Origin: Gammaproteobacteria bacterium | GTDB lineage: Bacteria > Pseudomonadota > Gammaproteobacteria > SZUA-229 | DNA: 64,000 bases | Assembly (NCBI GenBank): GCA_029882215.1 | Contig: JAOULC010000004.1 | Span: 61,701 to 125,700, forward strand | Direction of reading: 5' to 3' | Shown: positions 4,158 through 63,674 of the stretch, in pieces | How positions within the stretch are numbered: position 1 is the first letter of the stretch | How the letters are laid out: every line of letters begins with the position of its first letter | Position numbers and translations under genes: made by a program | The notes under the pieces: generated by a model | Seen by the model: the letters and a program-made list of their open reading frames with translations, nothing else | Told to the model about the DNA's origin: nothing | The model's database searches: none

Positions 4158-4185
4158 GCTCTAACTCATCCGATAAGTATGAACT
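4158..4185 (-). promoter_or_regulatory. Conserved 28-nt upstream box (identical copy at 6022..6049) ~30 nt 5' of the paralog A start, followed by ATATTACC-N4-GGTAATAT palindrome (4192..4211)
   Basis: Exact 28/28 identity GCTCTAACTCATCCGATAAGTATGAACT (plus strand) in both upstream regions although flanking non-coding DNA has diverged; adjacent 8-bp-arm perfect inverted repeat. Confidence 0.55.
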
Positions 4186-28904: not shown

Positions 28905-28938
28905 CATCAAAAAAAATCCCGCCAGGCGGGATTTTTTT
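28905..28938. terminator. Bidirectional rho-independent terminator between convergent thrC and hom
   Basis: AAAAAA-TCCCGCC-A-GGCGGGA-TTTTTTT: GC stem flanked by A-run and T-run. Confidence 0.8.
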
Positions 28939-33303: not shown

Positions 33304-33454
33304 TTCCCTTACTATTTACCGGCTTTATACAAGCTCAGACTTGTTGATTTACTGTCTTTAAAAATCGAAAACAGTTATTCAATCTGAAAATAAATACTCC
33401 ACTGATAAGCGATATGAGAAGACTCAAATATACTTATGCAAGCAGGTAATTAAC

Positions 33455-34348: not shown

Positions 34349-34351
34349 TAG

Positions 34352-36348: not shown

Positions 36349-36433
36349 AATATTATTATTCGACCTGCTAAAAACTCTATAGTAATGTATTGAGGTCTTA
36401 ACATCACCCATATTTTTATTATTAGCGGCCCAA

Positions 36434-36970
36434 ATGACAACAAAAAAAACCAAAGATAATAATGACTTGCAGCTCTTTCATGAGGAAATGCAGGATGTAA
36501 GACCACTGATCAATGATCGCGTCACACACGCGCCCAAAAAAAAGCCTTTAAATAAGCGGCCATCTGCCGAATCTGCCCAGGCCGTTAGCGAAAATATATT
36601 CTCAACCAGCAACGTCACCGACTGTGACGTCATCCTAAGATTTGAACGCCCGGGCTTACAAAAGCCGTTATTAAAAACATTCCGGCAGGGCAAAATGCCC
36701 ATAGAAGCCTCGCTTGATTTACATGGCTACACCAGTGAGCAGGCACGCACGGCAATGATAGAATTTATGCGCTTAGTCCAGAGAGAACAATTAAGAGTTG
36801 TCTGCATTGTGCATGGAAAAGGTTTTGGCTCGAACAGTAAGCAGCCGGTTATTAAGCCTCTGATCAACAAGTGGCTACAAGAATTGAATGAAGTGCTCGC
36901 GTTTAGTTCAGCCCAGCCCAAAGATGGCGGCACAGGTGCCGTTTATGTCTTACTCAGAAAAGACAAGTAA
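36434..36970 (+). CDS. smrB: Smr-domain ribosome rescue endonuclease SmrB-like
   Basis: 178 aa; C-terminal Smr domain ([11 protein letters not shown]...VVCIVHGKG). Confidence 0.75.
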
Positions 36971-43900: not shown

Positions 43901-44545
43901 GAACAGAAAAGAAGTATTTCACAGACTTTTGAGCCACCAGAGGATATGAAAGCGCTAATTAATCTCGATGTAAAAGGTGGTATTCATCGCATTGGCGGTA
44001 ATGCTAATGCCTATCGGAAACAATTGAAACGCTTCAGCAAAAACTATGCTGATTGCACCACGGAATTGCAACGTTTTATTGATAAAGAAGGCACGCAGCA
44101 GGCCGAGGGTTACTGCCATGCACTTAAAGGTGTTACCGGTAATATTGGGGCAAAAAAGCTTCATGAAAAAGTAACAGAGCTTGATGATTTACTCAAACAG
44201 AATCAGATTCCAGAGAAGACAGCCTTAAATGAAATGGAGGTTTTACTACAAGCTGTACTCAGTGATATTGAAAGTTTATTAGAAACCTCAGATACCTCAA
44301 TGTCAGTCGACTGTGAGCCTCTGAAGGCGATAGAATTACATAACCTTCTGCAGAAATTACTAAATGCTCTGGAAACCGATCTGGGAGCTGTCGAAACATT
44401 AGTTATTAAGCTTCAGCACGGCCTGACTGACAGCGACCAAAAGGCCGCAATAGAAGCAATAGCGCGTCAGATTGACTGCTTTGACACAGATACCGCTATT
44501 GATTTAATTAACCAATTTCAGTCTGAATTAAACATTACAAATTAA
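40940..44545 (+). CDS. Hybrid sensor histidine kinase: TM - small periplasmic domain - TM - HAMP - GAF - HisKA - HATPase_c - REC - REC - Hpt
   Basis: 1201 aa; [16 protein letters not shown]-box; [18 protein letters not shown]; two receiver domains ([13 protein letters not shown]; [12 protein letters not shown]); C-terminal Hpt ([12 protein letters not shown]). Confidence 0.9.
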
Positions 44546-47406: not shown

Positions 47407-47649
47407 TAGCGAATCGAAACACATTATTAAGAAGATGCGTTAAAAGAAAGTTTAAATAACTAAATAGAGATTTATTTTATTTGTGTTTAAGATTGCATTT
47501 TTCTCAATACAATCTCACATTATATAATATCTTTTAATGTGAGAGATTGAGTAGTCTTTGATTCTACTTCTACGTATTAAATTTTAATAATATTTTTGGT
47601 AATTCCCTGTATGAAGTTACCGTTTTAAGTGACACTCTAAATTAGAGTT

Positions 47650-47990
47650 TTCGCCTTTTTTGTGGACAGCCAGATACTCACAAGAAGCCGGGGCATTCAG
47701 CGAGTCATGCGGGGTTTCTTCTTTGTATTCTCTGATCCGGTTTTCGTTAGCTCTCTGACTTCATTCAGGATTTTAAATACATAACTGTTCGGAATATCAT
47801 CACAGTATGTTCGGTTAAAGCGCTGAGCAAAAATCAAACAGGACACACTGAACCTCCCCCCCCGGTTTAACGGACACTTTTAATCAGAGACTAAAGTCTC
47901 TGTGTTAGGGCACATTTTTTGGGTGACGTTTCTTATGTGAGTAAGAAAGGTCACTCGCTGTTGCCCGGCTACCGATGTCTTTGACATAGG
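47650..47990 (-). mobile_element. Possible degraded transposase/IS remnant (two short ORF fragments) in AT-rich spacer
   Basis: Minus-strand fragments MSKTSVAGQQRVTFLTHIRNVTQKMCPNTETLVSD* and ...NRIREYKEETPHDSLNAPASCEYLAV...; the latter resembles the conserved C-terminal end of DDE (rve) transposases (…Y.YNEERPHS.LGY.TP.EY); no intact IRs seen. Confidence 0.3.
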
Positions 47991-48111
47991 ATTCTCCCAA
48001 AAAATCTACTGAGATAAAACTAAAGATATCAGGACATTAAATATTACTTCATTCACCTTGTTTTTGTAGATCCCCCGTAACAACAAAATCACTCTATAAT
48101 TGTCACTTAAC

Positions 48112-50079
48112 CTAACTCAAGCGCTGCTGATCCGTCAGCCAGTAAAAATGATACGGTGGTATCACCAGCTGATCTTTAAATAATGCCGGTTTATCACCGG
48201 ACACCAGGTCACTGATATGGCCGTGTGATAACACCGCTTTTATATAAGGATTATTCAGATCAAGGTATTGCGGGTTTGCATCAAAGTTAACCACCACTAA
48301 TACCCCGCCTGCCGAACGGGTCAGGTTAAAGCGCGAATAAACAAACAGGTGTGGGTTATCCACGTGGATTAATTCACGGTTGTTAAAATCTGCAAACGCA
48401 GGTATGCCCTTTCGTACCGCGATCATTTTTTTAATGGCATTAAATATATGGTGTTGCGTCGTGCCGGACTGATGCCTGAGCTCTGCTTTATCCCAGTCGA
48501 AATCCGGGCGGTGAGCCCAGCGGGTATCATGAGCTTTGTTTTCATCATTTAGAAAGTTACAATCGTTTAGCGTTCCCAGTTCATCTCCGTAATACAGCAA
48601 GGGGATTCCGCCGAATGACAGGATCAGACTGTGCAGCAACAGTATATGCTGCATAGCATTATTTATTCGGTCTGGGTTTTCTGATTCCAGCGCTGTTTCC
48701 AGACCAACCAGAGATGCCAGCGAGCCTGAAATGCGTGCATCACCGGTTTTAAGATTATGGCCAAAAGGAAAACCTCTGGCATCCGAGTCACTGAAATTAC
48801 CGGTGTAGTAGTCGATGAGAAATTTGCGGTGATTGACCGGTTCATAGTTCACTGCGCGAATATCGGTATCATCAAAACCCAGTCCAATATCATCGTGGCA
48901 GCGCACATAGTTTAACCAGGTTGCCCGCTCCAGTTTATCCGGCAGACTTCTCAGCCCCTGATAAAGTAGTCTGGCATTTTTGGTGGCCACAGCATCCCAC
49001 AGCAGAGCCATTAAGGTGGCATTGTAGGCTATTTCACATTCCTTAGCATTGATCGCGTCTTCACCAAAATATTTAATGATTTCCACCGGTGCCACAATGG
49101 CTTCTGCAATAAACAGCACACCCGGTGCTGTAACCTGACAGCAGTCTTTCATTAACTGTAATATCAGGTGAGCTTCACGTTCATTCTGGCAGGCACTGCC
49201 GATTTTTTTCCATAAGAACGCCACGGCATCCAGGCGGATAATATCTGCGCCCTGATTAGCCCAGAACAAAATAATGTCGAGCATTTCAATGAATACGGCC
49301 GGATTACTGTAATTAAGATCCCACTGGTAATCATTAAATACCGTCATCACCCATTTATTCATTTCTGCATCCCAGGTGAAATTACCGGGAGCTGTTTCCG
49401 GGAATATTTCCGGCATGGTCTCTTCAAACATGTCGGGGATTTCACGATTATCAAACAGGTAGTAATAATCCTGGTATTTTTTTTCACCAAGGCGCGCACG
49501 CTTTGCCCAGTCATGCTCATTGGATGTGTGGTTAACCACAACATCCATGGTCAGTAAAATATCACGCTTCTTCAGTGACTCACTCAGTTCGTGTAAATCA
49601 TCATTCGTGCCGATGCGCTCATCTACCCGGCGGAAATCACTGATTGCATAGCCACCGTCACTTTTACCTTCAGGGCACTGAAGTATGGGCATGATATGAA
49701 TCATATTCACACCCAGCTCCTGAAAATAAGAAAGCCTTTCGTTAAGCCCTGATAAGTTATTTGCAAAACCGTCTGTATATAAGGCCATGCCTACCCATTT
49801 CTGGCTGAGAAACCAGTTATGGTCTTTTTCACGCTCTATGTCCTTTGTTTTAAGTTTTTTAGAGCGCTCCATATACTGCTTGGCCATGGTTTCAACCAGG
49901 CGCAGGGCTTGTTCTTCAAAATCATCACGATCGCCATATAACAGATGAAACAAAGAATAAATGGCGTAGAAGTTTGCACCGAGACGGGTATAAAAATGCC
50001 GTAATTCATGTTTCTTTATTTCCGGCTTTAACTTGATCAGTATTTCATTAAGTAAAGAATGTGAGACCTGTTCGTACAT
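48112..50079 (-). CDS. ams: Amylosucrase (GH13 sucrose glucosyltransferase)
   Basis: 655 aa; colinear with Neisseria amylosucrase (PYFQELG, CPEGKSDGGYA, NHTSNEHDWA, WDLNYSNP, IRLDAVAFLWK, GDELGTLND). Confidence 0.85.
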   Translation of the reverse strand: MYEQVSHSLLNEILIKLKPEIKKHELRHFYTRLGANFYAIYSLFHLLYGDRDDFEEQALRLVETMAKQYMERSKKLKTKDIEREKDHNWFLSQKWVGMALYTDGFANNLSGLNERLSYFQELGVNMIHIMPILQCPEGKSDGGYAISDFRRVDERIGTNDDLHELSESLKKRDILLTMDVVVNHTSNEHDWAKRARLGEKKYQDYYYLFDNREIPDMFEETMPEIFPETAPGNFTWDAEMNKWVMTVFNDYQWDLNYSNPAVFIEMLDIILFWANQGADIIRLDAVAFLWKKIGSACQNEREAHLILQLMKDCCQVTAPGVLFIAEAIVAPVEIIKYFGEDAINAKECEIAYNATLMALLWDAVATKNARLLYQGLRSLPDKLERATWLNYVRCHDDIGLGFDDTDIRAVNYEPVNHRKFLIDYYTGNFSDSDARGFPFGHNLKTGDARISGSLASLVGLETALESENPDRINNAMQHILLLHSLILSFGGIPLLYYGDELGTLNDCNFLNDENKAHDTRWAHRPDFDWDKAELRHQSGTTQHHIFNAIKKMIAVRKGIPAFADFNNRELIHVDNPHLFVYSRFNLTRSAGGVLVVVNFDANPQYLDLNNPYIKAVLSHGHISDLVSGDKPALFKDQLVIPPYHFYWLTDQQRLS

Positions 50080-50146
50080 TGTAATTTACATCGTAATTAT
50101 ATTGGTGCTTGCAGACAGATTAAATAAACTGACTCACCACCAACTA

Positions 50147-51028
50147 TTACAAGCTCCAGTTTTCAATAAAAGGGGTGTAAAAATTTTTATCCAGTGTAGT
50201 TGCTCCATGCAACCCGACCACAGCACTGGCGAATTGCTGAGCCCGTTTTATTGTATCGTTTAATGACCAGTCGTTATGCAAGCCTAATAATAGTACGCTG
50301 CTAAATGCATCACCGGCGCCAACGGTATCAATAACATTAATCGTTTTTTCCGGCTGAACCGATAGCAGATCATTTTCACTGATAACAACTGCACCGGCAG
50401 AACCTTTTGTTACGATTATCAAATTAAGGGCATACTGTGATAATAAAAAGCGCGCTCTGGATTCGCTGTCTTTTTCATCGGGAACCAGCTGCAACAGTTC
50501 TTCATCATTTATTTTTAACCAGTTCGCCCCCTTTATAACAGCGTTTATCAGCGACAAGTTCCACCATGGCGGGCGCAGATTAACATCAACAAAAACAGAC
50601 TCGGAACACCTGTTTTTTACCTCAGCAAGGCAGTTTGCCGAAACCGCTTTTCTCAATGCCAGCGAGCCATGATACAACATACTGTAATCATCAATCTCCA
50701 GTAGCTGACGTGAATTAATAAAATCCCAGGCACTGTTTTCAATAATATTGTAAGCAGGATTACCCTGATCAAAATTAACCGTCACCACCCCGGTTGGATG
50801 AACGGTATCAACCTGCAAGCCATCCGTATCCATACCCCAGTTGAGCATGGCTGATTGTATCTCAGCCCCCATTGCATCATCTCCAATGCGCGAGATCAGT
50901 AATGGGTTTAAGCCAAATGCCTGAGTGTGCCAGGCAACATTAAACGGGGCGCCGCCTAATACACGTGAATCATCAGGAAAACAGTCAAATAAAACCTCAC
51001 CAAAGATAACCAGCCGTGAATCACTCAT
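50147..51028 (-). CDS. Fructokinase (PfkB-family carbohydrate kinase)
   Basis: 293 aa; N-terminal GG motif, C-terminal DTVGAGDAF anion-hole motif; 4-nt overlap with upstream spp. Confidence 0.85.
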   Translation of the reverse strand: MSDSRLVIFGEVLFDCFPDDSRVLGGAPFNVAWHTQAFGLNPLLISRIGDDAMGAEIQSAMLNWGMDTDGLQVDTVHPTGVVTVNFDQGNPAYNIIENSAWDFINSRQLLEIDDYSMLYHGSLALRKAVSANCLAEVKNRCSESVFVDVNLRPPWWNLSLINAVIKGANWLKINDEELLQLVPDEKDSESRARFLLSQYALNLIIVTKGSAGAVVISENDLLSVQPEKTINVIDTVGAGDAFSSVLLLGLHNDWSLNDTIKRAQQFASAVVGLHGATTLDKNFYTPFIENWSL

Positions 51029-51909
51029 GCAGCACCCTGTAACCAGTCTTTAAAATGTGGCAGATAGTGAATAACACCTTCCACTATACCGGCGCTGTAA
51101 TTTCCATTCATATCCATGAAGTTTCCCTGTGCAAGATACAGCTGCCCTTGCAGATTATTTGCCTGTGCTGCCTTTAATACTTGCTGACGAACTTCAGTGT
51201 CAGCATTAGCAACCAGCACCGACTGTACAGGGCTGCTCAGCACGCAGACATCATTACCACTGTCACCGGCGAACACAGTTTCTGTGTATTCGTAATCAAG
51301 TTTTTTCATTAAATATTCAATCGCCTGACGTTTACCCGCACTGGCCGGCAGAATATCGAGCAGCCCGGTGTTAATTAACTCATCAATACTCCAGATAATA
51401 TTAGCTGCAATACCCTGTTGCTGCAGGCGCAGATTTATTTTTTTTATAACTGACTGATGATCTGTATTTAATGCCACGTAGTAACTGAACTTATGAATAT
51501 TTTGTTTACTGGCCTCCTGAAGCTTTATCTCACTAATATCAAGTAGACTGTCGTGTAGTTCAGCTGCAGTTTGCTGCTGCCAGTCGTCACTTATCTTTTT
51601 CTCCCAGTCTGTCATTGACTGCCAGCCAGTACTGTTAAGCTGATAGATTGATGAACCCACATCCGCAATCACAAAATCTGCCTGTGGCAGGTCATACTCC
51701 TCTATCGCCTGCTCGACCAGTTGCCGATGGCGTCCTGTCACATAGGCCAGTATGATATCGGGATGTGCCGTCAGTTTTTTAAAATATTCTCTGGCATGAT
51801 CCGATTCTGGCTGAGGCCCGTTAGGTATTAATGTGCGGTCAAGGTCTGTACACAGTAATAAACGCGTCGCTTTTGTTGCTTCATTATTTTCGGCTAACGG
51901 TTTATTCAT
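51025..51909 (-). CDS. spp: Sucrose-phosphate phosphatase (HAD-IIB)
   Basis: HAD motif I LLCTDLDRTLI, motif IV GDSGNDV; start assigned to MNKPLAEN (ORF-track ATG 51939 would overlap sps by 37 nt). Confidence 0.75.
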   Translation of the reverse strand: MNKPLAENNEATKATRLLLCTDLDRTLIPNGPQPESDHAREYFKKLTAHPDIILAYVTGRHRQLVEQAIEEYDLPQADFVIADVGSSIYQLNSTGWQSMTDWEKKISDDWQQQTAAELHDSLLDISEIKLQEASKQNIHKFSYYVALNTDHQSVIKKINLRLQQQGIAANIIWSIDELINTGLLDILPASAGKRQAIEYLMKKLDYEYTETVFAGDSGNDVCVLSSPVQSVLVANADTEVRQQVLKAAQANNLQGQLYLAQGNFMDMNGNYSAGIVEGVIHYLPHFKDWLQGAA

Positions 51910-54076
51910 CGGGCACCCGGCAGCTGTCAAAAAAATCATAATGCTCTATGGCTTCGAGGATGCCGGCAGCGTAAGGATATTTAGAATAAAAAACACTATC
52001 GAGTTCGAGTAACTCAGTCAGTTCTTCGTTATGACGGTTAGCCACTATCACGGCCAGTGTATTGCCTCTGATCATGTCTTCGTCCGCCCCCGAACCACCT
52101 GCAACCAGAATATGATCGAGCGGAATATCCCATTGCTCGGCATACCAGCGTAACGCCAGACCTTTTGATGCCCTGACCGGAACAATATCCAGAAACTGTC
52201 CGAAAGAAAGCACACTGTTCACCGTTTGCTCGTGACGCAGTAAAAGCTTTCTGATCTCATCTATAGAGGGCGCTTTTTCAGCGTCATAGTAGTAACTTAT
52301 TTTATAGCGACTTTGTTCGCTTTTATGTTGCAGACTAAGTCCCGGCATATCTTTCAAAAGCGCACGTACTTTACTAGGTCGCCATAAATAATCGATATGA
52401 TCATCCCAGGCAGTATCCCGGGTCAGATTTTGTCCGTAATAAATTTCAGTCCCCAGACTGGTAACCAGTGCATCGGGTAACGGAATTTTATTGGCTTTGA
52501 TCAGTTTTAAGGCGGAGTCCAGACGTCGTCCGGTTGCGATACCAAAACTACTGCAGCGCGCATTATCTTTTATTATCTGACTAAAGGCCGGTATATCAGC
52601 AGGCTCACCCAGTAAACTCTGATCCAGATCAGAAAAAATAGCACGATTGCGGTAAAGCCGGGAGCGACGCTGCAGCTTCATACGCACAACCGCTTCTGTT
52701 TTATCAATCACCGGTTTGATTACTTTCAGATAACTTTCAGCATGGCCCTTCCATGAATAATAATTATTCACGCCCTGAATACCACTGCCGGCCATTTTTT
52801 CCCACTGCTTTTTATCACTCAATGCAAGTAGCAGCTGCTGAATAATTTGTTGATGATCTAAGGGATCGATCAGATATCCATTTTTACAATTGGAGATGAT
52901 ATCAACAGGACCGCCATCTTCAGTTGCAATGATTGGTAAGCCACAGGCAGCCGCTTCTATTAAAGTCAGGCCAAACGGTTCAGTCAGCGCCGGATTAATA
53001 AACACGCCGCCTGATAATGCTGCCAGCCGGTAAATCACCGAAATATCAGTGGCTAAATGGTGCTTTGGGTATGCGACTTTACCATAAAGATCATACTGAT
53101 CAATGCTTAGCAGCAGGCTGGTCAGCACTTCCTGTGCGCCCGCTTCGAGGTCACGAATATCATCACGGTTACCGGCAATAATCACCAGATTAGCAAGCTG
53201 TTGTAAATCCTCAGACTGACCATAGGCTTCTATCAGCGTGACGATATTTTTTCTCTGATCCGGTCGTGAAATTGCCAGTATCATAGGCTTGTCAGGATTA
53301 ATCAGAAAGCGGTCAATTTGACGGGATATTTCACTTTGTTTTTCAGATCTGTCCGGCGGATGAAACTGTGTCAGGTCTGTACCCGGTGGCACCACGCGCA
53401 TTTTATTTGGCTGATAGAAATCATATAATTCGTATTGCTCTTCAATCTCCTGATTGGTGCTGGTTACTATTCTGTCAGCAACACCCAGTGTAACTTCTTC
53501 TGCTTCTATCCTGCGTGACATACAGTAACGTTTTTCTATCTCGGCACTTTTTACTCCGCTTGCAAGTAATCTTTGTCGCTTACTGCGACCCAGTGAATGA
53601 CCGGTATGTACCAGCGGCACGCTTAACTGATGAGATAAAAGTGTGCCGACATAGCCTGCATCGGCATAATGACTGTGAATAACATCCGGCGTCAGATCAT
53701 GCTGATGTAAATAAGCTAAAAGATTATCTGAGAAAATATCAAGGTGATCCCAAAGCTGTTCTTTGGGTAAGTAAAGCTGATCTGCACAGTCAATTCGTAC
53801 AATACTGACTTTATCACTCAGCTTTTCAGTATGCCGGGCATAATCAGAACTGACTGTTTTATCGACCAGACGACGTGTTACCAGATCGACCCGTGCAACC
53901 TCTGGCTGCTCACCAAGCGCACGAGCCAGTTCAATAACATACTTGGTCTGACCACCTGTGTCAGCATCGCAACCCAGTTCCAGATCATGACCACGGATAA
54001 GACCATGAATACTGATAAGCAGAAAATGAAGACCGTCTTGTTTTTTCCGGTTATTTTTTTTTATGACTAATGACAC
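51902..54076 (-). CDS. sps: Sucrose-phosphate synthase (GT4 glycosyltransferase + C-terminal SPP-like HAD domain)
   Basis: 724 aa; N-terminal GT-B with HGLIRGHDLELGCDADTGGQTKYV typical of SPS, E..GLP..AT..GGP motif, C-terminal HAD-like domain. Confidence 0.85.
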   Translation of the reverse strand: MSLVIKKNNRKKQDGLHFLLISIHGLIRGHDLELGCDADTGGQTKYVIELARALGEQPEVARVDLVTRRLVDKTVSSDYARHTEKLSDKVSIVRIDCADQLYLPKEQLWDHLDIFSDNLLAYLHQHDLTPDVIHSHYADAGYVGTLLSHQLSVPLVHTGHSLGRSKRQRLLASGVKSAEIEKRYCMSRRIEAEEVTLGVADRIVTSTNQEIEEQYELYDFYQPNKMRVVPPGTDLTQFHPPDRSEKQSEISRQIDRFLINPDKPMILAISRPDQRKNIVTLIEAYGQSEDLQQLANLVIIAGNRDDIRDLEAGAQEVLTSLLLSIDQYDLYGKVAYPKHHLATDISVIYRLAALSGGVFINPALTEPFGLTLIEAAACGLPIIATEDGGPVDIISNCKNGYLIDPLDHQQIIQQLLLALSDKKQWEKMAGSGIQGVNNYYSWKGHAESYLKVIKPVIDKTEAVVRMKLQRRSRLYRNRAIFSDLDQSLLGEPADIPAFSQIIKDNARCSSFGIATGRRLDSALKLIKANKIPLPDALVTSLGTEIYYGQNLTRDTAWDDHIDYLWRPSKVRALLKDMPGLSLQHKSEQSRYKISYYYDAEKAPSIDEIRKLLLRHEQTVNSVLSFGQFLDIVPVRASKGLALRWYAEQWDIPLDHILVAGGSGADEDMIRGNTLAVIVANRHNEELTELLELDSVFYSKYPYAAGILEAIEHYDFFDSCRVPDE

Positions 54077-54130
54077 TACTCAATAATCCCTTGTAAGAAA
54101 AACAATAAATCAGGCAATCGGTACAAATTA

Positions 54131-54162
54131 TTAAAAAAAGCTCTGATATCTTCGACTCAGAG
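54131..54162 (-). terminator. Rho-independent terminator of glgP (stem includes stop codon)
   Basis: Minus strand CTCTGA-GTCGAAGATA-TCAGAG followed by CTTTTTTT. Confidence 0.7.
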
Positions 54163-56625
54163 TTTCCAGATCTCCTCATTGTATTCATGCATGGTTCTGT
54201 CTGTTGAAAAATGCCCGCTGCAGGCCGTATTGTTGATGCTCATTTTTAACCACCCTGTCTCGTCACGATAAGCCTGTGAAACTTTTTCCTGCGCGTCAAT
54301 ATAACTTCTGAAATCAGCCAGGGTTAACCACGGGTCGTTTTTATTTTTTAATGAGAAGATAATATCATCAAAAATTCCTGACTCAAATGAGTTGAAATGA
54401 CCACACTCTAACAGATGCATGACCCGTTTTAAATCTTCATCGTTACTAATGTATTTATCAGGCTCGTAATTTTGTTTTAAATGACTCACTTCATCCGCCT
54501 TTAAACCAAACAAAAAGAAATTATCTTCACCGACGGCTTCCAGTATTTCTATATTGGCACCGTCATAAGTACCAACGGTGACTGCACCGTTCATCATGAA
54601 CTTCATATTACCGGTGCCGGATGCTTCTTTACCTGCCGTTGATATTTGTTCAGACAGATCGGTTCCGGGGCAGATAATTTCCATCTTAGACACCCCATAA
54701 TTCGGGATAAATGCCAGTTTTAACTGATCGCCCACTTCAGGATCATTATTAATGACTTCAGCGACATTATTTATCAGTTTGATTATTGATTTGGCTATGC
54801 GGTAACCGGGAGCCGCTTTTCCGCCAATAAGTACACATCGATTGGTCCAGTTTTTTCTATCACCATTTTTAATTCTGGCATATAGGTGAATAACGTGTAA
54901 CACGTTCAATAACTGGCGTTTATACTCATGTATTCTTTTAACCTGTACATCAAAAAGCGAAGTGGTATTAAAATCAACTCCACATTCATCTTTAATTAAG
55001 TCAGCCAGCCTGCGTTTATTTTCCTGTTTTACCCGCTGCCAGTTTTGTCTGAACTCAATATCTTCACTATATTTACCCAGCTGACTGATCTGTGCCAGAT
55101 CACCTATCCAGTCATCGCCTATTTTCTCTGAGATCAGACTGCTCATCAGCGGATTGGAATGTGCTATCCATCGACGGGGAGTTACCCCGTTAGTTTTGTT
55201 ATTAAATTTCTCAGGCCATAGCTCATAAAAATCCTTAAATAAACCTTCTGTGAGTAACTGTGAATGCAATGCCGCAACGCCGTTAACTGAAAAGCTGCCA
55301 ACTATGGCAAGATAGGCCATGCGAACTGATTTAACATCACCCTCTTCAATAATTGACATTCTAATTTGCTTATCCGTATCACCCGGCCAGCGGGTCGACA
55401 CCTCGGAGAGGAATCTGGCATTTATTTCATAAATAATTTGCAACAATCTTGGTAAGAGTTTTTCAAATAAATGCACCGGCCATTTTTCCAGTGCTTCAGG
55501 CAGCAATGTGTGATTGGTATAGGCCATGGTCTGACTGGTGATTTCCCACGCCTGCTCCCATGACATATATTTTGTATCTATTAACAGCCGCATTAACTCT
55601 GCAACCGCAATGGTAGGATGCGTATCGTTCATCTGAAAAACATTTTGTTGTGAAAACTCACTGAAGTCATTACCGTGCTCGGTGCTCCACATGCGAAGCA
55701 CATCCTGCAGACTGGCTGATGCCAGAAAGTATTGTTGTTTAAGGCGTAATTCCTTGCCGTTTTCACTGGCATCATTCGGATACAGAACCATGCTGATATG
55801 TTCTGCATTATTTTTAGCTTCTACTGCCTCCGAGTAACTGCCGGCATTAAAGTCATCAAGACTAAATACATTGGTCGGGCTGGCACTCCATAAGCGCAGT
55901 GTATTAACTGTTTTGTTTTTATAACCGGATATAGGAACATCATACGGTATTGCCAGAATATCAGCTGTACCAATCCAGACAACATGCGGCTTACGGTTAT
56001 GATTGGTCACTGTTTCAACACGGCCGCCAAATTTTATAACCTGGGTGAACTCGGCCCGCTCAAGCTCCCATGGATTTCCGTCTCTTAACCAGTGATCAGG
56101 TTCTTCTACCTGAAATCCGTTTGTTATTTTTTGCCTAAACATGCCATATTCATAGCGAATCCCATAACCTATAACGGGTAGTTTAAGACTGGCACAGCTG
56201 TCCATAAAACAGGCCGCCAGTCTGCCAAGACCGCCATTACCAAGTCCTGCATCATGTTCTTCTGTAATAATTTCTTCAAGCTTGAGAGCGAACTTATTCA
56301 TCGCATCTTTAACTTCTGAATTAATGTCGAGATTAAGAATATGGTTACCCAGTGATCGACCTATTAAAAATTCCAGTGACATGTAATAGGCTTTACGAAC
56401 ACCTTTTTGTTCGTAAAGCTCCCAGGTATTACGCCAGTCCGACATAATATGGTCACGCAAGGTTAATGAAAGCGCCTCATATAAATAATAAGGTACACAA
56501 TCAACAAAGCGCCCCAGATGCAGAGTAAGGTATCGCTCAAAATCCTTGGCTATGGATTCGCTGTCTTTTGGCAATACATCCATTTTCGGAATTTTTGTCT
56601 CGCACAGTGGTTTTTTATTCGACAT
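54157..56625 (-). CDS. glgP: Glycogen/maltodextrin phosphorylase
   Basis: 822 aa; PLP site EASGTGNMKFMMNGA. Confidence 0.95.
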   Translation of the reverse strand: MSNKKPLCETKIPKMDVLPKDSESIAKDFERYLTLHLGRFVDCVPYYLYEALSLTLRDHIMSDWRNTWELYEQKGVRKAYYMSLEFLIGRSLGNHILNLDINSEVKDAMNKFALKLEEIITEEHDAGLGNGGLGRLAACFMDSCASLKLPVIGYGIRYEYGMFRQKITNGFQVEEPDHWLRDGNPWELERAEFTQVIKFGGRVETVTNHNRKPHVVWIGTADILAIPYDVPISGYKNKTVNTLRLWSASPTNVFSLDDFNAGSYSEAVEAKNNAEHISMVLYPNDASENGKELRLKQQYFLASASLQDVLRMWSTEHGNDFSEFSQQNVFQMNDTHPTIAVAELMRLLIDTKYMSWEQAWEITSQTMAYTNHTLLPEALEKWPVHLFEKLLPRLLQIIYEINARFLSEVSTRWPGDTDKQIRMSIIEEGDVKSVRMAYLAIVGSFSVNGVAALHSQLLTEGLFKDFYELWPEKFNNKTNGVTPRRWIAHSNPLMSSLISEKIGDDWIGDLAQISQLGKYSEDIEFRQNWQRVKQENKRRLADLIKDECGVDFNTTSLFDVQVKRIHEYKRQLLNVLHVIHLYARIKNGDRKNWTNRCVLIGGKAAPGYRIAKSIIKLINNVAEVINNDPEVGDQLKLAFIPNYGVSKMEIICPGTDLSEQISTAGKEASGTGNMKFMMNGAVTVGTYDGANIEILEAVGEDNFFLFGLKADEVSHLKQNYEPDKYISNDEDLKRVMHLLECGHFNSFESGIFDDIIFSLKNKNDPWLTLADFRSYIDAQEKVSQAYRDETGWLKMSINNTACSGHFSTDRTMHEYNEEIWKL

Positions 56626-56629: not shown

Positions 56630-58120
56630 TTACCTCTGGTATAAGACCATTAATTTTAAAATTTTTTCAGTAACATCCGGCTTAAGTTGCTGCCAGTCAA
56701 AGCGCCAGCTCCAGTTACCACCGATGGTGCCCGGTGTATTCATGCGGGCGGATGAATCCAGCATTAATAAATCCTGCATCGGTAATATACAAAGATAAGA
56801 TACCGATGACATGGCCTGCCGTATGAGTGACCAGACATCCTGCTCTGCTGTCTCGTTTTGTACATTAAGATATTCGTTAAAATATTTTTTATTATAATTT
56901 TCTGTATTTCTGACCCAGCCAAGTGTTGTATCGTTATCATGGGTACCGGTATAAACAAGATCGTTTGCGCATTGCTGATGAGGCAGGTGAGGATTTTTAT
57001 TATTGCCGTCAAATGCAAACTGTAAAACTTTCATACCAGGCAGATTAAATGATTTTTTTAGCTCTATCACATCATCGGTGATCACACCTAAATCTTCTGC
57101 CACCAGCGGTAAGTGATCGAAAGTGCTGAATAAAGCTGTTAATAATTCTTTGCCTGGTACATTTATCCAGCTGCCATTCATGGCTGTTTCGTCTTCACAA
57201 GGTATTTGCCAGCAGGCCTGTAAGCCGCGAAAATGATCAATACGAATCATATCAAACAGCTCTAACTGAGTTTTAAAGCACGCTTTCCACCAGCTAAAGT
57301 CTGTTGACTGCATATAATCCCAGTTGTATAAAGGATTTCCCCAGCGCTGGCCAGTAGCTGAAAAAGCATCAGGGGGAACACCGGCAACAAATTCCATATT
57401 GCCATCATCATCCATTAAAAAATTTTCTCTCTGTGCCCAGACTTCAGCACTGTCTCTGGCAACAAATATCGGTATATCGCCGAATAACTCTATCTCATGT
57501 TGCTTAGCATACTCACGAAGTTCACGCCATTGAGTAAAAAATACAAATTGCTCAAAGATAATTTGCTGTATATCCGCTTTAAGTTTTTTTTCTGCATTAG
57601 CCAGTGTTTTAGTATCGCGGTGCCGCTCCTTTGCAGGCCAGTCATACCAGGGTTTGTTCTGGTATTGTTTTTTTAAAGCCATAAACAATGCATAATCATC
57701 CAGCCAGTGTTTATGATCTTGGCAGAAGCCGCCTAGTTTACGTTTCCATTCGGTATTTTCTGACTGGTAAAAATTTTCAGCCGCACTCTGCAAACAGGCT
57801 AACCGGTAGCTTTCATCCTGCTCTGAAATATTAATGTTTTTTCTTTCCAGCCAGTGCCGGTCTTGCAGCCAGTCAAGGCTGATCAGTAGAGGGTTACCGG
57901 CATGTGATGACAGGCACTGGTAGGGCGATTTGTCATCATGTGTAGGACCCAGCGGCAGCATTTGCCAGACTTTAAATCCACTAGATTGCAAAAATTCAAT
58001 ATAGCGATAAGCCTGATGACCAATATCGCCGCTGCTTAATTTTCCCGGCAGCGATGTCGGATGCAAAAGCACTCCGGCTTTTCGTTTTTTACTGACAATG
58101 CTGGCCGCATTATTACTCAT
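56630..58120 (-). CDS. malQ: 4-alpha-glucanotransferase (amylomaltase, GH77)
   Basis: 496 aa; GVLLHPTSLPG N-terminus and GH77 catalytic regions. Confidence 0.9.
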   Translation of the reverse strand: MSNNAASIVSKKRKAGVLLHPTSLPGKLSSGDIGHQAYRYIEFLQSSGFKVWQMLPLGPTHDDKSPYQCLSSHAGNPLLISLDWLQDRHWLERKNINISEQDESYRLACLQSAAENFYQSENTEWKRKLGGFCQDHKHWLDDYALFMALKKQYQNKPWYDWPAKERHRDTKTLANAEKKLKADIQQIIFEQFVFFTQWRELREYAKQHEIELFGDIPIFVARDSAEVWAQRENFLMDDDGNMEFVAGVPPDAFSATGQRWGNPLYNWDYMQSTDFSWWKACFKTQLELFDMIRIDHFRGLQACWQIPCEDETAMNGSWINVPGKELLTALFSTFDHLPLVAEDLGVITDDVIELKKSFNLPGMKVLQFAFDGNNKNPHLPHQQCANDLVYTGTHDNDTTLGWVRNTENYNKKYFNEYLNVQNETAEQDVWSLIRQAMSSVSYLCILPMQDLLMLDSSARMNTPGTIGGNWSWRFDWQQLKPDVTEKILKLMVLYQR

Positions 58121-59826
58121 CAGTGATGCTGCCCGGGTAACATGGTTCCGCCCATGGCTGGCTCACCTGAACCAAATGAGAATGCTTTGGTAATATATTC
58201 CGGCGTTTCGACTTTTAATATCTGGTACAGATTACTCAAGTGCATACGAAACTGCTCATCAAAAGCCGCAACCGATTCGGCAGAGTTATACTCGCCGAAC
58301 CACCAGAACCAGTCTGAACTTTCACAGGTAGCCAGCTGCATTTCTGCGGCCTTCAGCACATCGGCTGACAAGTGACCCTGTGTTAGTGCCTTGTCATAAA
58401 CTTTTTTTGCATCGACCAGCATATCCCAGGCACGATTTTTATCTTTTTCACCGATCCAGGTTGAAAACGTACCGTAAACCCAGCTTCCAGCCACAACTTC
58501 ACTGAGTGATTGTTTATTGCTTTGCATTTTCAGATAGTCACTGAAAGTGGTGAGTTTTATACCGTCATGCTGTGCAAGTTTTTCGTACAAGGCACTGATA
58601 AAGTGATAGCCATTTTGCGGGTAGTATTCCCAGGCATTTTCCCCGTCCAGGATGATGGATATAATGGCATCAGGTTTATCACGGCAACTGTCTGCAATTG
58701 TTTCAATATTATGTAACAGGTTAGCAACCGCATCGTCTGCATGCCAGTCAGAGTATTTAAATCCTATCAAATCGGATAAACCATCATCCCTGAAAAAACA
58801 GGCCGTGGCTGTATCACGATACTGATAGGCCTGATGTATACAGTTGCCAGCTGAAATTTCCGACTTATTAAGAGAGTTTTGTAACACACTTCCGCCACTG
58901 GCGATCCATTTAATACCCATTTCAGATATCAGTTCAATGGTTTCTGCACTGATGCTGCCTTCAGATGGCCAGCAGCCTGCTGGCATCACATCAAAGTAAT
59001 GTTTAAAAACTTCGATACCTTTTTGCATATGCCAGTGACTTCTTTCACTGCCACCCGGGTACTGATTTGCCAGTGGCAGTTCAACACCCGGCATGGCCTG
59101 TGCAGCAGAACTGATATCAAGCAGCAGCGGTACAATCGGGTGTGCATAAGGCGTCATCGACAGTTCTATGCGACCGGCGTGTGCCAGTTGTTTGTAACGG
59201 TCGATTATTCCGCTGATCAGTTCATTAATAACCTGTACTAATATATGCCGGTCATGCACCGTAAAGTGACGGCCTTTTTTCATTAAATTTTTAATGCGTG
59301 AATCGTTAAGGCGAACCGTTTCAGCCATCCAGGCCAGGTGATACCAGACCAGTATGTCGGTAAAAAACTGCTCTGAGTAATAGTTTATTATTTCCGGCTT
59401 TTCGACGGCTTCTTCTGCCATATCAGTGAGCATACTGAAAATCGAAAAACGATCAATTAAGCGCTCTTTATTGGCTCGCAAGCAGGCCTTTATAATGTGC
59501 TGTCGCTTTTCATGGTCCAGCGATAACACAGGATCAGCGAGTGCGGCTAACAGAGGGTCCCTTAATGCTTTACCGTGATTGTGATAATCATTGAGTTGTT
59601 GTGCGTAATCATCAATTTGCTCAAGCAATACCGGCGCAAAGTTAATCACTGCACGTGCATCCGCATTGTTTTCCAGGTGCGCGGCCATATCCACATAGTC
59701 TTTTATGGTATGCAGGTAGGTCCATGGCAGATGATATTCGCCGTTGCGCAAATCACGATATTCCGGCTGATGCATATGCCAATAGAGCACGACATTTATT
59801 GCTGGCTTATGCGCTTCACCTGACAT
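58120..59826 (-). CDS. Glycoside hydrolase family 57 protein (alpha-glucan amylase/branching-type)
   Basis: 568 aa; GH57 signature [10 protein letters not shown] near N-terminus; embedded in glycogen gene cluster. Confidence 0.75.
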
Positions 59827-61099
59827 AATGCACCTCCTGCCCCAGCATTTCCGGTGTAACTAAAACCACACCGTTTGGCGATATATAAAACCTTTTTGCA
59901 TCTTCTTCGGCATCATGGCCGATAACGGTGCCGTCAGGAATATCACAGCCTTTATCAATAACCGCATGAAAAATTTTACAGTTTTTACCAATGATCACGT
60001 CCGGTAAAATCACCGACGAATCCACTTTCGAATAATTATCGACAGTGACATTAGAAAAAAGCAGTGAATGACGAACCAGTGCACCTGAAATAATGCAACC
60101 ACCCGATACCATCGAGTCGACCGCCATGCCTCTTCTGTCACCGTCATCGAAAATAAATTTGGCCGGTGGCAGCTGTTCCTGATGGGTCCATATTGGCCAC
60201 TCATCATCGTATAAATTAAGTTCCGGTGTTATACCAATCAGCTCAAGGTTTGCCTCCCAGAAAGCATCTACCGTACCCACGTCTCGCCAGTAGGCTTGTA
60301 TATTGCTATTGGCCGTCGTAAAGGGATAGGCATGGACATGATAATTTTTTATTGCATAGGGAATCACATCCTTGCCAAAATCATGACTGGAATTTAGCGA
60401 ATCGGCATCACGTATTAACAGCTCAAATAACAAGTCGGTATTAAAGATATAGATTCCCATTGAGCACAGGGCATGATCCGTGCTGCCACTCATCGCTTGC
60501 GGCTGGCTTGGTTTTTCAACAAAACTGCGTATTCGATTATTGTCATCGACCTCCATCACGCCAAATGCCGAGGCTTTTTCCAGCGGAACTTCAATACAGC
60601 CCACCGAAACGTCAGCATTCGATTCAGCATGCTTTGCCAGCATCGGCCCATAATCCATTTTATAGATGTGATCGCCTGCCAGAATCAGCACATAATCGGG
60701 TGAATGTGAACGTATAATATCGAGGTTCTGATAAATAGAATCTGCCGTGCCGGTATACCAGGACGACTCAATCCGTTGCTGAGCCGGCAATAACTCTACA
60801 AACTCACCAAACTCACTGCGCAAATGTCCCCAGCTCTTTGCCACATGCAGCATCAATGAGTGAGATTTGTATTGTGTGAGCACACCAATTCGACGAATAC
60901 CCGAATTGATACAGTTTGATAAAGGAAAATCGATAATACGAAACTTACCGCCAAAAGGCACGGCTGGCTTGGCTCGCCACTTAGTTAACTGCTTAAGTCG
61001 TTCGCCACGACCACCGGCCATAATTAATGCCAGCGTATTTCGCGTCAGGTTACTGACAAAGCGTGCTGATTTTTCTGTCTTCATCCGTGTCATACTCAT
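59816..61099 (-). CDS. glgC: Glucose-1-phosphate adenylyltransferase
   Basis: 427 aa; [29 protein letters not shown] motifs; left-handed beta-helix C-terminus. Confidence 0.95.
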
Positions 61100-61463: not shown

Positions 61464-63674
61464 ATGACGCTAAAAGAAACACAGGCAAAGGACAGTTTCA
61501 TCTCGATTCCGGCCAGCATTAAGAATGAACTGAATAAAATCGGTCAGGCCATACATCATGCACCTTTTTCTGTATTGGGCAACCAGACGGCCTATGCTGA
61601 TGACTTTATCATTTTCTATTCCCCGTACACTCGTCTGCTAACACTGACTGAAAAGCACCTGCCAACACAGCGCATTGAAGACAGTGATTTTTTTATCTGT
61701 AGCGAGCTTCAGGACATTGGTCAGCATCCTTTAATCAACCGCACAGACACTGATAATAATACCTCCTCGCTCCACGACCCTTACAGTTTTACACCTCAGC
61801 TCAGTGACTATGATTTGAATTTATTTTCAGCCGGTAAACACCTGCATGTATATAATATTCTGGGTGCACACTCTAAAGTTATCGACAATATTGCCGGGGT
61901 CTTATTTGCTGTCTGGGCTCCTAATGCATCACGCGTCAGTGTTATTGGCGAATTTAATCACTGGGATGGCCGTCTTCACCCGATGCGTTCACGCGGTGTC
62001 AGTGGTGTCTGGGAATTATTTATTCCCGCCATACAAAATGAAACATTATATAAGTTTGAAATAAAAAACCGCGACAGTGGCAATATTTTTGCAAAATCTG
62101 ATCCTTATGCCCGGCAACTGGAGTTTCGCCCGCGCACCGCTTCCGTTGTCAAAAACACCCTTGCTTTTCAATGGCAGGATAAACACTGGATGAATGCCAG
62201 AGAAAAATATGACTGGCTGCACCAGCCCTTATCCATTTATGAGTGTCATCTGGGTTCATGGCAGCGCGACGAGCACGGTAATTTCCTGAATTACCGGGAG
62301 CTGGCTCACCGACTGGTTGATTATATAAAAGAAACAGGCTTTACTCATATCGAACTGTTACCGGTCACAGAGCACCCGCTGGACGCCTCATGGGGCTATC
62401 AGACCACCGGCTACTTTGCCCCCACAAGGCGTTTTGGTATGGCCGATGATTTTCGCTACTTTGTTGATTATTGCCATCAGCATGACATCGGAGTATTGCT
62501 GGACTGGGTACCCGCACACTTTCCTAAAGACCCGCACGGGCTTGCCTGTTTTGATGGCACCACACTGTATGAACATGAAGACCCGCGGCGCGGTGAACAC
62601 CGTGACTGGGGAACATTAATCTATAATTATGGCCGACAGGAAGTCAAAAATTTCCTGATTTCAAGTGCTGTATTCTGGTTAGAGGAATACCATATTGATG
62701 GCTTGCGCGTTGATGCCGTGGCATCGATGTTATATCTGGATTATTCACGCGAAGATCATGACTGGATTCCTAACCAGCACGGTGGCAATGAAAACTTTGA
62801 AGCCATTGAGTTTATGCGTGAGTTAAACACAGTCACCCATGCCAGATTTCCCGGCACGATGATCATGGCGGAGGAGTCAACCGCATGGCCACAAGTGACC
62901 CGCCCTGCCGATATTGGCGGTCTTGGTTACAGCATGAAATGGAACATGGGCTGGATGCACGACAGCCTGAACTACATGGCTAATGATCCGGTACACCGTC
63001 ACTATCACCATCATCAGTTAACCTTTGGCTTATTGTATTTATTCAGTGAAAATTTTATTTTGCCTTTTTCGCACGATGAAGTGGTACACGGAAAAAGTTC
63101 ACTATTGCATAAAATGCCGGGCGATGAATGGCAGCGCTTTGCAAACCTGCGTTTATTGTATACCTATATGTTCACTTATCCGGGCAAGAAGCTGCTGTTT
63201 ATGGGCTGCGAATTTGCTCAGGGTGATGAATGGGACCATGATAAAGCACTCGACTGGTATGTCTTACAATACCCGCTTCATGCCGGCATTAAAAAACTGA
63301 CGACTGATCTTAACCAGCTGTATAAACAATACCTGCCATTACACCAATATGATTTCGATGCCAAAGGATTTGACTGGATAGACTGCAACGACACCGACCA
63401 GTCTGTACTTTCCTATATCAGAAGGAGTGACGACGATAGCATCATCATTGTGCTTAACTTCACTCCGGTGATCCGTGACAATTACCGCATTGGTGCCCCC
63501 GAAAATGGTGACTATGAAATCATATTCAACTCAGATTCCGAGTACTATAGTGGCAGTAATGCCGGCAGCCACTCGAAAATTTCAAGTGAAGCGGTTGCGT
63601 GGATGAATCAACCTGCATCATTAACACTCAGCCTGCCTCCGCTGGCAGGACTGATACTAAAGAAAAAACCATGA
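61464..63674 (+). CDS. glgB: 1,4-alpha-glucan branching enzyme
   Basis: 736 aa; GH13 branching enzyme regions ([24 protein letters not shown]-set N-domain). Confidence 0.95.

Follow-up and report, generated by a model that had tools for sequence, protein, structure and literature searches.

A predicted sucrose synthesis and recycling cluster of known type beside the glycogen genes of an uncultured gammaproteobacterium

Gene Content of the Locus

The window analyzed here, a 64,000-nt stretch of a metagenome contig from an uncultured gammaproteobacterium, carries four intact and adjacent genes on its minus strand in the order sps-spp-fruK-ams, just as the first-pass annotation had placed them. 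An independent gene call for the source contig gave the same four products, of 724, 294, 293, and 655 aa. Directly upstream and on the same strand lie glgC, a GH57 gene, malQ, and glgP, with glgB and glgA divergent beyond them, an arrangement that bears out the earlier proposal of a link to the glycogen genes. The features are as follows, with the best family-model scores given for the glycogen genes.

48112..50079, minus strand: ams, GH13 amylosucrase-type sucrose:alpha-1,4-glucan glucosyltransferase, 655 aa
50080..50146, minus strand: fruK-ams spacer, 67 nt
50147..51028, minus strand: fruK, PfkB-family sugar kinase at the fructokinase position, 293 aa
51025..51909, minus strand: spp, stand-alone sucrose-6-phosphate phosphatase (HAD-IIB, S6PP family), 294 aa
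51902..54076, minus strand: sps, two-domain sucrose-phosphate synthase, 724 aa, GTG start (54076)
54133..54162, minus strand: weak hairpin with U7 that overlaps the stop codon of glgP; may act as a leaky terminator or attenuator ahead of sps
56625..54157, minus strand: glgP, phosphorylase (TIGR02093, 1195 bits)
58120..56630, minus strand: malQ (NF011080, 640 bits)
59826..58120, minus strand: GH57 (PF03065, 173 bits)
61099..59816, minus strand: glgC (NF001947, 682 bits)
61464..63674, plus strand, divergent: glgB (NF003811, 1016 bits)
From 63671 past the window end (64000), plus strand: 5' part of glgA, joined to glgB by an ATGA overlap (N-terminus 99.5 bits to NF001899)

The four genes had been described as joined by overlaps of 4–8 nt. 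This holds at sps/spp, where the junction reads ATGAATAA and the overlap with the spp ATG at 51909 is 8 nt, and at spp/fruK, where the overlap is 4 nt (ATGA), but not at fruK/ams, where there is a 67-nt gap. The fold of that spacer (−13.3 kcal/mol, z −1.27) is not significant, its length in relatives is variable (median 41 nt, range 2–367), and no obvious Shine-Dalgarno sequence precedes the ams ATG within the 67-nt leader. The GTG is the sole possible start for sps because a TGA lies two codons upstream. A longer spp start at 51939, giving 304 aa and a 38-nt overlap, was dropped in favor of 51909, which is the start in the source-contig gene call and matches the N-terminus in the closest relative (locus L002). 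A candidate conserved 35-codon ORF located 3' of ams was ruled out, as it is not kept in relatives. Blastn of the glgP-sps, fruK-ams, and ams-downstream intergenic sequences against 80 related loci gave zero matches, Rfam gave nothing at the gathering threshold over the whole window (one chance-level match, E = 3.8, came from 47380-48150), and a tRNA search found none.

Although glgA runs past the window end, its full-length orthologue in L002 scores 602 bits to NF001899. With glgB and glgA divergent upstream, classical glycogen synthesis would therefore be present too. The idea that the amylosucrase stands in for a missing glycogen synthase was ruled out by this glgA, which starts at 63671 right after glgB.

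Predicted Enzymes of the Cluster

Sucrose-phosphate synthase (SPS) and not some other GT4 enzyme was the identity earlier given to the 724-aa product, and this point, on which the annotation had staked itself in advance, stands. The protein passes both NCBIfam models for the domains of SPS, with 680 bits against the glycosyltransferase model TIGR02472 (cut-off 576) and 291 bits against the SPP-like model TIGR02471 (cut-off 210). Its best solved match is the SPS of Halothermothrix orenii (2R60, 239 bits), while other solved GT4 enzymes score lower, with sucrose synthase at 162 and 139 bits and MshA-type enzymes at about 85. The translation shows GGQ, GHSLG, and E-X7-E (EPFGLTLIE) motifs. The architecture is that of a GT4 glucosyltransferase domain followed by a C-terminal SPP-like HAD domain, and from 724 aa the monomer mass is estimated at roughly 80 kDa. 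From family membership we infer the conversion of NDP-glucose and fructose-6-phosphate to sucrose-6-phosphate as the SPS reaction.

The product of spp scores 181.9 bits against PF05116 (S6PP) and 127.4 bits against TIGR01485, the plant and cyanobacterial SPP equivalog, below its cut-off of 183.65. When aligned to the Synechocystis SPP 1S2O it keeps DLDRT, TGR, K, and GDSGND, that is, HAD motifs I-IV. Since it falls in a proteobacterial branch of the S6PP family, its specificity is predicted from context. FruK scores 145 bits against PF00294, and its best NCBIfam match is fructokinase NF006957, at 113 bits and far under the cut-off of 450. Its best solved relatives bear the name fructokinase (2QHP, 111 bits; 5EY7, 75 bits), and its GGAP, NDEE, and DTVGAGD motifs follow the PfkB pattern. 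Moreover, its position between spp and ams is that of the characterized FrkA of Synechococcus PCC 7002, an order kept in 46 loci. With both FruK and Spp below the NCBIfam equivalog cut-offs, their putative specificities rest on family, motifs, and conserved position.

The 655-aa GH13 protein had been called an amylosucrase, with grouping among sucrose phosphorylases or trehalose synthases set out as the contrary outcome, and the comparison upheld the name. Seven solved amylosucrase sequences score 500–540 bits, as against about 420 bits for the Xanthomonas sucrose hydrolases (SUH), about 188 for TreS, and only 60 for the sucrose phosphorylase model TIGR03852. Full-length GH13 alignment with the Neisseria polysaccharea and Deinococcus amylosucrases (PDB 1G5A, 3UCQ, 4AYS; also 7ESH) shows that the nucleophile, the acid/base, the transition-state Asp, the Asp-Arg pair that closes the pocket, and the arginines of the acceptor site are shared. 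In fact, the equivalents of D144, H187, D286, E328, H392, D393, R415, R446, and R509 of the N. polysaccharea enzyme (NpAS) are all kept, including the D144-R509 salt bridge that closes subsite −1. Of course, there are differences from NpAS, as the identity is only 40% over 627 aligned positions and R226 is replaced by Pro, a change also seen in the Deinococcus enzymes. To our knowledge, the Neisseria amylosucrase is not encoded in an sps-spp-fruK context.

Could this protein instead be a hydrolase like the SUH enzymes of Xanthomonas, with the cluster splitting sucrose to glucose and fructose without forming glucan? We take Ams to belong to GH13 subfamily 4, which also holds non-polymerizing sucrose hydrolases, and the SUH enzymes, at about 420 bits, are closely related to it and give good matches; amylosucrases themselves are known from the literature to carry out some sucrose hydrolysis. 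Every solved true amylosucrase nonetheless beats SUH by 80–120 bits, the equivalents of NpAS R415, R446, and D144-R509 are present, and the B'-domain segment aligns without a large gap. Likewise, the enzymes from similar clusters in Methylomicrobium alcaliphilum and Methylobacillus flagellatus, and from the same four-gene operon in Synechococcus PCC 7002, showed typical amylosucrase activity, and the window cluster holds no glucokinase gene. A hydrolase thus seems very unlikely, and amylosucrase is the preferred prediction on the basis of bit scores and conserved acceptor-site arginines.

A less settled matter is whether the C-terminal domain of SPS has phosphatase activity of its own, which would make the enzyme a bifunctional SPS/SPP and the stand-alone Spp redundant. 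The domain retains DLDQS, ATGR, the SKG lysine, and an acidic DEDM cluster, and these motifs are near-invariant in more than 60 diverged orthologues and are therefore under selection. In addition, spp is missing between sps and fruK in eight related loci, a two-domain 84-kDa SPS/SPP has been reported for M. flagellatus, and bifunctional two-domain SPSs have been reported for cyanobacteria. On the other side, Asp186 of the Synechocystis SPP (GDSGND) is Gly in the window SPS and in every relative (GGSGAD), and in HAD enzymes an acidic residue at the equivalent position normally binds Mg2+. The literature also describes the phosphohydrolase domain of the two-domain Synechocystis SPS as non-functional, and most loci keep a canonical stand-alone spp. 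A possible correlation between the state of the domain and the presence of a neighboring spp was sought and none was found, the motifs being alike in loci with and without the gene. An active C-terminal domain is thus a tentative proposal that we are inclined to doubt.

Transcription of the Cluster

The cluster had been described as an operon beginning after a clean terminator at the end of glgP. A hairpin followed by U7 does exist there (CUCUGA-loop-UCAGAG, C, U7; AT-rich), but it is not clean, with a weak fold of −7.4 to −8.3 kcal/mol that is no better than that of shuffled sequence (z = −0.87; 34 of 200 shuffles equal or better). A terminator scanner made no call on it, probably because the 6-bp-stem reading has a 10-nt loop where the limit is 8. 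A scan for perfect 6-bp stems followed by T6 found eight sites in the window, where shuffles gave 0.6 ± 1.2, which is an enrichment. The eight include two GC-rich terminators, one after an rpoS-like sigma-factor gene and the other a bidirectional pair at 28909-28938 that makes up two of the sites; the hairpin at the end of glgP resembles the four intragenic sites more than it does these two terminators. The stretch downstream of ams gave no terminator-like call.

A sigma-70-type consensus scan called no promoter in the 55 nt that separate the U-tract from the start of sps, and the nearest promoter-like match, at 54207..54178, lies inside glgP and upstream of the hairpin. A sigma-54-like TGGCAC-N5-TTGC noticed by eye near the sps start was rejected for its wrong spacing. 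The idea of an operon with a terminator boundary of its own stands as to the order of the four genes, but the boundary is weak and is followed by no promoter-like site. Co-transcription of sps-spp-fruK-ams is probable, judged from the DNA, because two of the junctions overlap.

Conceivably, the four genes form the downstream half of one eight-gene transcription unit, glgC-GH57-malQ-glgP-sps-spp-fruK-ams, with the hairpin doing no more than adjusting relative expression as a leaky attenuator. The eight genes all point the same way, the junctions from glgC to glgP lie between an overlap of 11 nt and a gap of 4 nt, and glgP and sps are only 80 nt apart. The weakness of the hairpin and its absence from the scanner calls fit this arrangement, as does the lack of a sigma-70-like site before sps. 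A hairpin and U7 set exactly at the stop codon do, however, have the look of a terminator, and such sites are enriched in the window; the promoter scan, for its part, took in sigma-70-type sequences alone. Moreover, in L002, the closest relative whose flank can be read, the sps gene follows a 1.2-kb divergent intergenic region adjoining glgB, so the cassette there must have its own promoter. On balance, we lean a little against the eight-gene unit, while giving it real weight. The fuller proposal, in which the leaky hairpin of such a unit tunes what share of the glycogen-mobilizing transcript runs on into the sucrose loop and the SPS HAD domain is also active (invariant GGSGxDEDM, without the canonical first Asp), is improbable. 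Were the unit real, glycogen breakdown and sucrose synthesis would be coupled transcriptionally, so that glycogen could be turned rapidly into sucrose after an osmotic upshift.

A Probable Sucrose Loop and Its Possible Physiological Role

We consider it likely, with a probability of about 0.85, that the four genes specify a known type of loop for making and recycling sucrose, which can be drained into glycogen. The grounds are gene integrity, family assignments, catalytic residues, gene order, and literature precedent; what we infer beyond these are the substrates and products of the enzymes here, co-transcription, and a salt trigger. SPS would join NDP-glucose and fructose-6-phosphate into sucrose-6-phosphate, and Spp, possibly along with the SPP-like C-terminal domain of SPS, would remove the phosphate to yield sucrose. 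Amylosucrase would then transfer the glucosyl part of sucrose to an alpha-1,4-glucan primer, freeing fructose, which the PfkB kinase would return to fructose-6-phosphate, closing the loop. The earlier claim that the set can make sucrose and route it back to alpha-glucan and fructose-6-phosphate is supported by family, residue, and gene-order evidence alike. Because the loop both synthesizes and recycles, net sucrose could accumulate, for example as a compatible solute, and could later be drained into the glycogen pool and not lost. That pool would be built, remodeled, and mobilized by the products of glgC, GH57, malQ, glgP, glgB, and glgA, and transcription of the glgC-to-glgP block may also run on into the four genes, past the weak hairpin and U7.

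The first-pass annotation went further and took the cluster to mark the organism as osmoadaptive, which is an over-reach. The same cassette occurs in Methylobacter and Thiothrix and a similar cluster is reported in M. flagellatus, all of which we regard as non-halophiles. The search it had suggested for ectoine or other osmolyte genes found none, betaine genes included, among the ORFs scanned in the 64,000-nt window. Osmoadaptation of this organism is plausible. A different emphasis would make the cassette mainly a carbon-storage shunt, in which sucrose buffers and feeds glycogen and ATP is saved on recycling, with osmoprotection not its purpose; the presence of the genes would therefore say little about salt tolerance. 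The occurrence in Methylobacter and Thiothrix genomes favors this, together with the M. flagellatus cluster reported in PMC6949346, and the review PMC11046441 stresses ATP saving and a glycogen-buffer role. The embedding of the cassette in a complete glycogen locus and the result of the osmolyte gene search agree with it as well. Speaking against it, sucrose is an established salt-response solute in the cyanobacterial literature and reportedly also in M. alcaliphilum, in work credited to But and colleagues in 2015. Many of the relatives are, going by record names, presumably marine, living in sediments or as symbionts of clams, which likewise counts against a mainly storage role. The two roles are, of course, not mutually exclusive, and we hold a predominantly storage function to be possible while favoring it less than its contrary.

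Distribution and Comparison with Known Systems

A colinear sps-spp-fruK-ams cluster was found in 46 of the 66 related species genomes with at least 4.3 kb of upstream flank. The genera and groups that carry the cassette include Thiodiazotropha, Thiothrix, Sedimenticola, Thiocapsa, Methylobacter, Mariprofundus, and Desulfocapsa/Desulforhopalus, and in these relatives it is often near glgB/glgA or glgP too. Identity in Ams reaches 88–89% in the nearest genomes. In two syntenic Methylobacter loci (L066 and L073), identity to the window is 71% for Ams, about 60% for SPS, and about 50% for Spp and FruK.

The import of all this beyond annotation is small, and no new mechanism is involved. Still, a complete sucrose loop joined to a full glycogen gene set can now be assigned to an uncultured, sediment-type gammaproteobacterial lineage. 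The cassette is common, with its order conserved, in marine sulfur-oxidizing symbionts, Zetaproteobacteria, and Desulfobulbales, a distribution of use to studies of how sediment chemolithotrophs store carbon and protect themselves against osmotic stress.

The same four-gene logic had been said to be known from other bacteria, and this is correct, as it is documented for Synechococcus PCC 7002 and reported for M. alcaliphilum. The cluster of Methylomicrobium (Methylotuvimicrobium) alcaliphilum 20Z is likewise gammaproteobacterial and has the same enzyme set, with a FruK that is fructose-specific. Its amylosucrase and its fructokinase were characterized by But and colleagues, in 2015 and 2012, respectively. 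The likeness here is one of enzyme set, the identity figures above coming from the Methylobacter loci, and the window organism differs in being an uncultured gammaproteobacterium with no evidence for methanotrophy. Similar clusters are reported both for strain 20Z of M. alcaliphilum and for M. flagellatus KT, and the amylosucrases of the two showed typical activity when expressed (PMC6949346), the M. alcaliphilum fructokinase is listed as characterized (PMC4412284, table 2), and a Sps/Spp/Ams/FruK pathway has been drawn for that organism (PMC8062543).

With respect to SPS, the architecture of GT4 plus C-terminal HAD domain is shared with the bifunctional SPS/SPP of M. flagellatus KT (But et al. 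2013) and with the Synechocystis two-domain SPS. The HAD domain is active in the former and inactive in the latter, and in the window protein it may be either: most HAD motifs are kept, glycine replaces the first Asp of motif IV, and the locus has an spp gene of its own.

The closest likeness by function and order is to Synechococcus PCC 7002, where spsA-sppA-frkA-amsA is described as one transcriptional unit (Perez-Cenci and Salerno 2014, cited in PMC11046441, section 3.3, and PMC9971976, section 2.2.2) whose amylosucrase showed typical activity (PMC9971976, PMC6949346). Both the four functions and their order are alike, and both clusters link sucrose synthesis, amylosucrase, and fructokinase. 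They differ in that the host here is a gammaproteobacterium and not a cyanobacterium, and in that the cassette lies directly downstream of glgC-GH57-malQ-glgP. Known before from methanotrophs and a cyanobacterium, the gene set is now seen in dozens more genomes, and the finding is correct but ordinary.

The sucrose cassette and its gene junctions

The first-pass annotation had described four co-directional sucrose genes, and these do occur as intact minus-strand ORFs spanning 48112-54076:

54076..51902, minus strand: sps, sucrose-phosphate synthase (SPS), 724 aa, GTG start
51939 or 51909..51025, minus strand: spp, sucrose-6-phosphate phosphatase (Spp), 304 or 294 aa
51028..50147, minus strand: fruK, fructokinase-position PfkB kinase (FruK), 293 aa
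50079..48112, minus strand: ams, GH13 amylosucrase-type enzyme (Ams), 655 aa

A TGA two codons upstream leaves the GTG at 54076 as the sole possible sps start. Products of 724, 294, 293 and 655 aa also appear in separate gene calls on the 170-kb ENA metagenome contig to which the window belongs (ERZ27296342 k141_1846399). The overlaps of 4-8 nt originally proposed hold for sps/spp (8 nt, ATGAATAA) and spp/fruK (4 nt, ATGA), but fruK and ams are separated by a 67-nt spacer, in which no clear ribosome-binding site before ams was found. GC content is 0.43-0.45 over the four genes, the same as in the flanks.

Identities of the four enzymes

The 724-aa protein passes both bacterial SPS domain models (TIGR02472, 680 bits against a cut-off of 576; TIGR02471, 291 against 210). 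It groups with SPS rather than with other GT4 enzymes: among solved proteins it matches the Halothermothrix orenii SPS best (2R60, 239 bits), versus 162 and 139 bits for sucrose synthases and ~85 for MshA-type GT4 enzymes. When aligned to Synechocystis SPP, its C-terminal domain retains DLDQS, ATGR and the lysine of SKG but carries GGSGADEDM in place of GDSGND. More than 60 SPS orthologues carry this variant essentially unchanged, which argues that the domain is under selection.

Ams is likewise of the amylosucrase type, scoring 500-540 bits against all solved amylosucrases (7ESH, 3UCQ, 9ISA, 4AYS, 1G5A), ~420 against Xanthomonas sucrose hydrolases, ~188 against trehalose synthases and 60 against the sucrose phosphorylase model. 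Over 627 aligned positions it shares 40% identity with the Neisseria polysaccharea enzyme, and it keeps the equivalents of D144, H187, D286, E328, H392, D393, R415, R446 and R509; at the R226 equivalent it has Pro, a feature shared with the Deinococcus enzymes.

The phosphatase assignment was borne out at the family level, since Spp is an S6PP-family HAD phosphatase (PF05116, 182 bits) whose four HAD motifs all align with those of Synechocystis SPP; it scores below the plant/cyanobacterial equivalog cut-off (127 versus 184 bits). FruK is a PfkB kinase (145 bits) with GG, NxxE and DTVGAGD motifs, and its nearest solved relatives carry the fructokinase name. The more specific label of fructokinase is less secure, as the protein lies far under the NCBIfam fructokinase cut-off (113 versus 450 bits), and we infer its fructose specificity from conserved gene position.

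The glycogen neighborhood and the glgP-sps boundary

The cassette is indeed embedded in a glycogen locus:

56625..54157, minus strand: glgP, directly upstream of sps and co-directional
58120..56630, minus strand: malQ, upstream of glgP
59826..58120, minus strand: GH57 gene, upstream of malQ
61099..59816, minus strand: glgC, upstream of the GH57 gene
61464..63674, plus strand: glgB, divergent from glgC
63671 to window end, plus strand: glgA, after glgB
54162..54133, minus strand: hairpin CUCUGAGUCGAAGAUAUCAGAG, then C, then U7, overlapping the glgP stop codon

Adjacent genes in the glgC-GH57-malQ-glgP block overlap by as much as 11 nt or lie up to 4 nt apart, and glgB and glgA are translationally coupled via an ATGA overlap (63671-63674). 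A role for Ams as a GlgA replacement was ruled out, as glgA starts at 63671. With glgC, glgB, glgA and the other genes all present, the locus encodes a complete classical glycogen pathway, and Ams is an extra entry to the glucan pool.

The hairpin between glgP and sps had been read as a clean intrinsic terminator, a description that did not stand. Its folding energy is -7.4 (centroid) to -8.3 kcal/mol (z = -0.87), 34 of 200 shuffles fold equally well or better, and a consensus terminator scanner made no call on it. A window-wide scan requiring a perfect stem of 6 bp, a loop no longer than 10 nt and six or more consecutive T gave 8 sites versus 0.6 ± 1.2 in dinucleotide shuffles, and the class is therefore real. 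Its convincing members are strong and GC-rich with short loops: 32242-32220, after the rpoS-like sigma-factor gene of a surE-pcm-(VTT-domain gene)-nlpD-like-rpoS-like cluster (32287-36453), and 28909-28938, where two of the eight matches form a bidirectional pair between convergent threonine-synthase-like and homoserine dehydrogenase genes. The glgP-sps hairpin is AT-rich with a long or bulged loop, like the four intragenic matches. A consensus scan found no σ70-like promoter in the 55 nt from the U-tract to the sps start; the closest promoter-like sequence (54207..54178) falls within glgP, upstream of the hairpin. Given a weak, AT-rich hairpin with no promoter following it, a terminator boundary separating the cassette is possible rather than established, and a leaky terminator inside a longer transcription unit would fit the data equally well.

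On the 3' side of ams, a 700-bp AT-rich non-coding stretch precedes a convergent hybrid histidine kinase. About 100 nt past the ams stop lies a multi-branch structure of ~95 nt (47900-48012, minus strand; -30.2 kcal/mol, z -3.2, 0 of 200 shuffles as good), in which the closing stem (GAUUUUUUGGG/CCCAAAAAAU) sequesters both a GGGAGA ribosome-binding site and the beginning of a 35-codon ORF (47985..47878). The structure has no Rfam match and occurs once in the window, and no conservation of its DNA or of the peptide was seen across the 80 related loci. Elsewhere in the window are four PhnD-like periplasmic binding-protein genes (3290-4126, 5150-5989, 10224-11123, 39978-40940). Two directly adjoin large hybrid histidine kinases (7305-10178, 40940-44545), the latter followed by a second hybrid kinase/response regulator (44554-47406), an arrangement that suggests binding-protein-dependent sensor kinases. 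A 944-aa ORF with a TTG start (17085-19919, minus strand) has no Pfam domain at E ≤ 1e-5.

Distribution among related loci

A genome scan with Ams as the query returned 80 species-level loci (L numbers below). The closest are from uncultured Gammaproteobacteria (Ams 88-89%, SPS up to 83%, Spp up to 65% and FruK up to 67% identity). Where at least 4.3 kb of upstream sequence was present, sps-spp-fruK-ams was colinear in 46 of 66 loci; sps and spp seem to overlap in nearly all 46, with alignment positions extrapolated to the first residue, while the spacer before ams varies (median 41 nt). No conservation of the cassette's intergenic sequences was found among the related loci.

Carriers include Thiodiazotropha and Solemya symbionts, Sedimenticola, Thiothrix, Thiocapsa, Methylobacter, Mariprofundus and several Desulfobulbales, all with Ams identities of ~70-73%. 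This level holds across three classes/phyla and is about that seen between distant Gammaproteobacteria, and the order of genes is mostly kept across these classes where the flank suffices (Desulfobulbales L016, L019, L026, L028, L035, L036; Mariprofundus L059, L062), which together suggests that the cassette has moved horizontally.

In eight loci, spp was undetected beside sps (L001, L017, L027, L044, L052, L055, L057, L079), among them the locus of the closest relative (L001) and those of two genomes of Thiodiazotropha taylori. In seven of these sps is followed directly by fruK, while L057 also lacks a fruK match; all eight have the same SPS C-terminal motifs, including the GGSGADEDM variant, as the loci with spp. 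On this comparative evidence, Spp may be dispensable or encoded elsewhere.

Glycogen genes recur nearby in several arrangements. In L002, the same glgB-glgA pair (1129-4814) is directly divergent from sps without the intervening glgC-GH57-malQ-glgP; glgP lies 2-4 kb upstream of the cassette in L031, L032, L042 and L079, and downstream and convergent in L060. The link is therefore recurrent, not fixed.

Possible osmoadaptation and comparison with known systems

The cassette had also been said to mark the organism as osmoadaptive. We infer osmoadaptation at most, because the cassette also occurs in Methylobacter and Thiothrix, and a similar cluster in M. flagellatus, all of which we take to be non-halophiles, and because a scan of ORFs found no other osmolyte genes in the window.

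The core of the finding is correct, and ordinary, since the four-gene logic is, as proposed, known from other bacteria. For Synechococcus PCC 7002, two reports describe the four-gene operon as one transcriptional unit (PMC11046441, PMC9971976). Sucrose is proposed to be a salt-responsive solute, and recycling it by moving the glucosyl unit onto glycogen spares ATP and reduces osmotic pressure (PMC11046441). Similar clusters have been noted in M. alcaliphilum 20Z and M. flagellatus KT, and the amylosucrases of both had typical activity (PMC6949346); the M. alcaliphilum fructokinase has been characterized (PMC4412284), and the Sps/Spp/Ams/FruK pathway has been drawn for that organism (PMC8062543). 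The two-domain SPS of M. flagellatus, with the same type of C-terminal domain as the SPS described here, is reported to be bifunctional, whereas the C-terminal domain of the two-domain Synechocystis SPS is reported to be non-functional. The locus fits the known four-gene pattern, its sole addition being the tight physical fusion to glgC-GH57-malQ-glgP.
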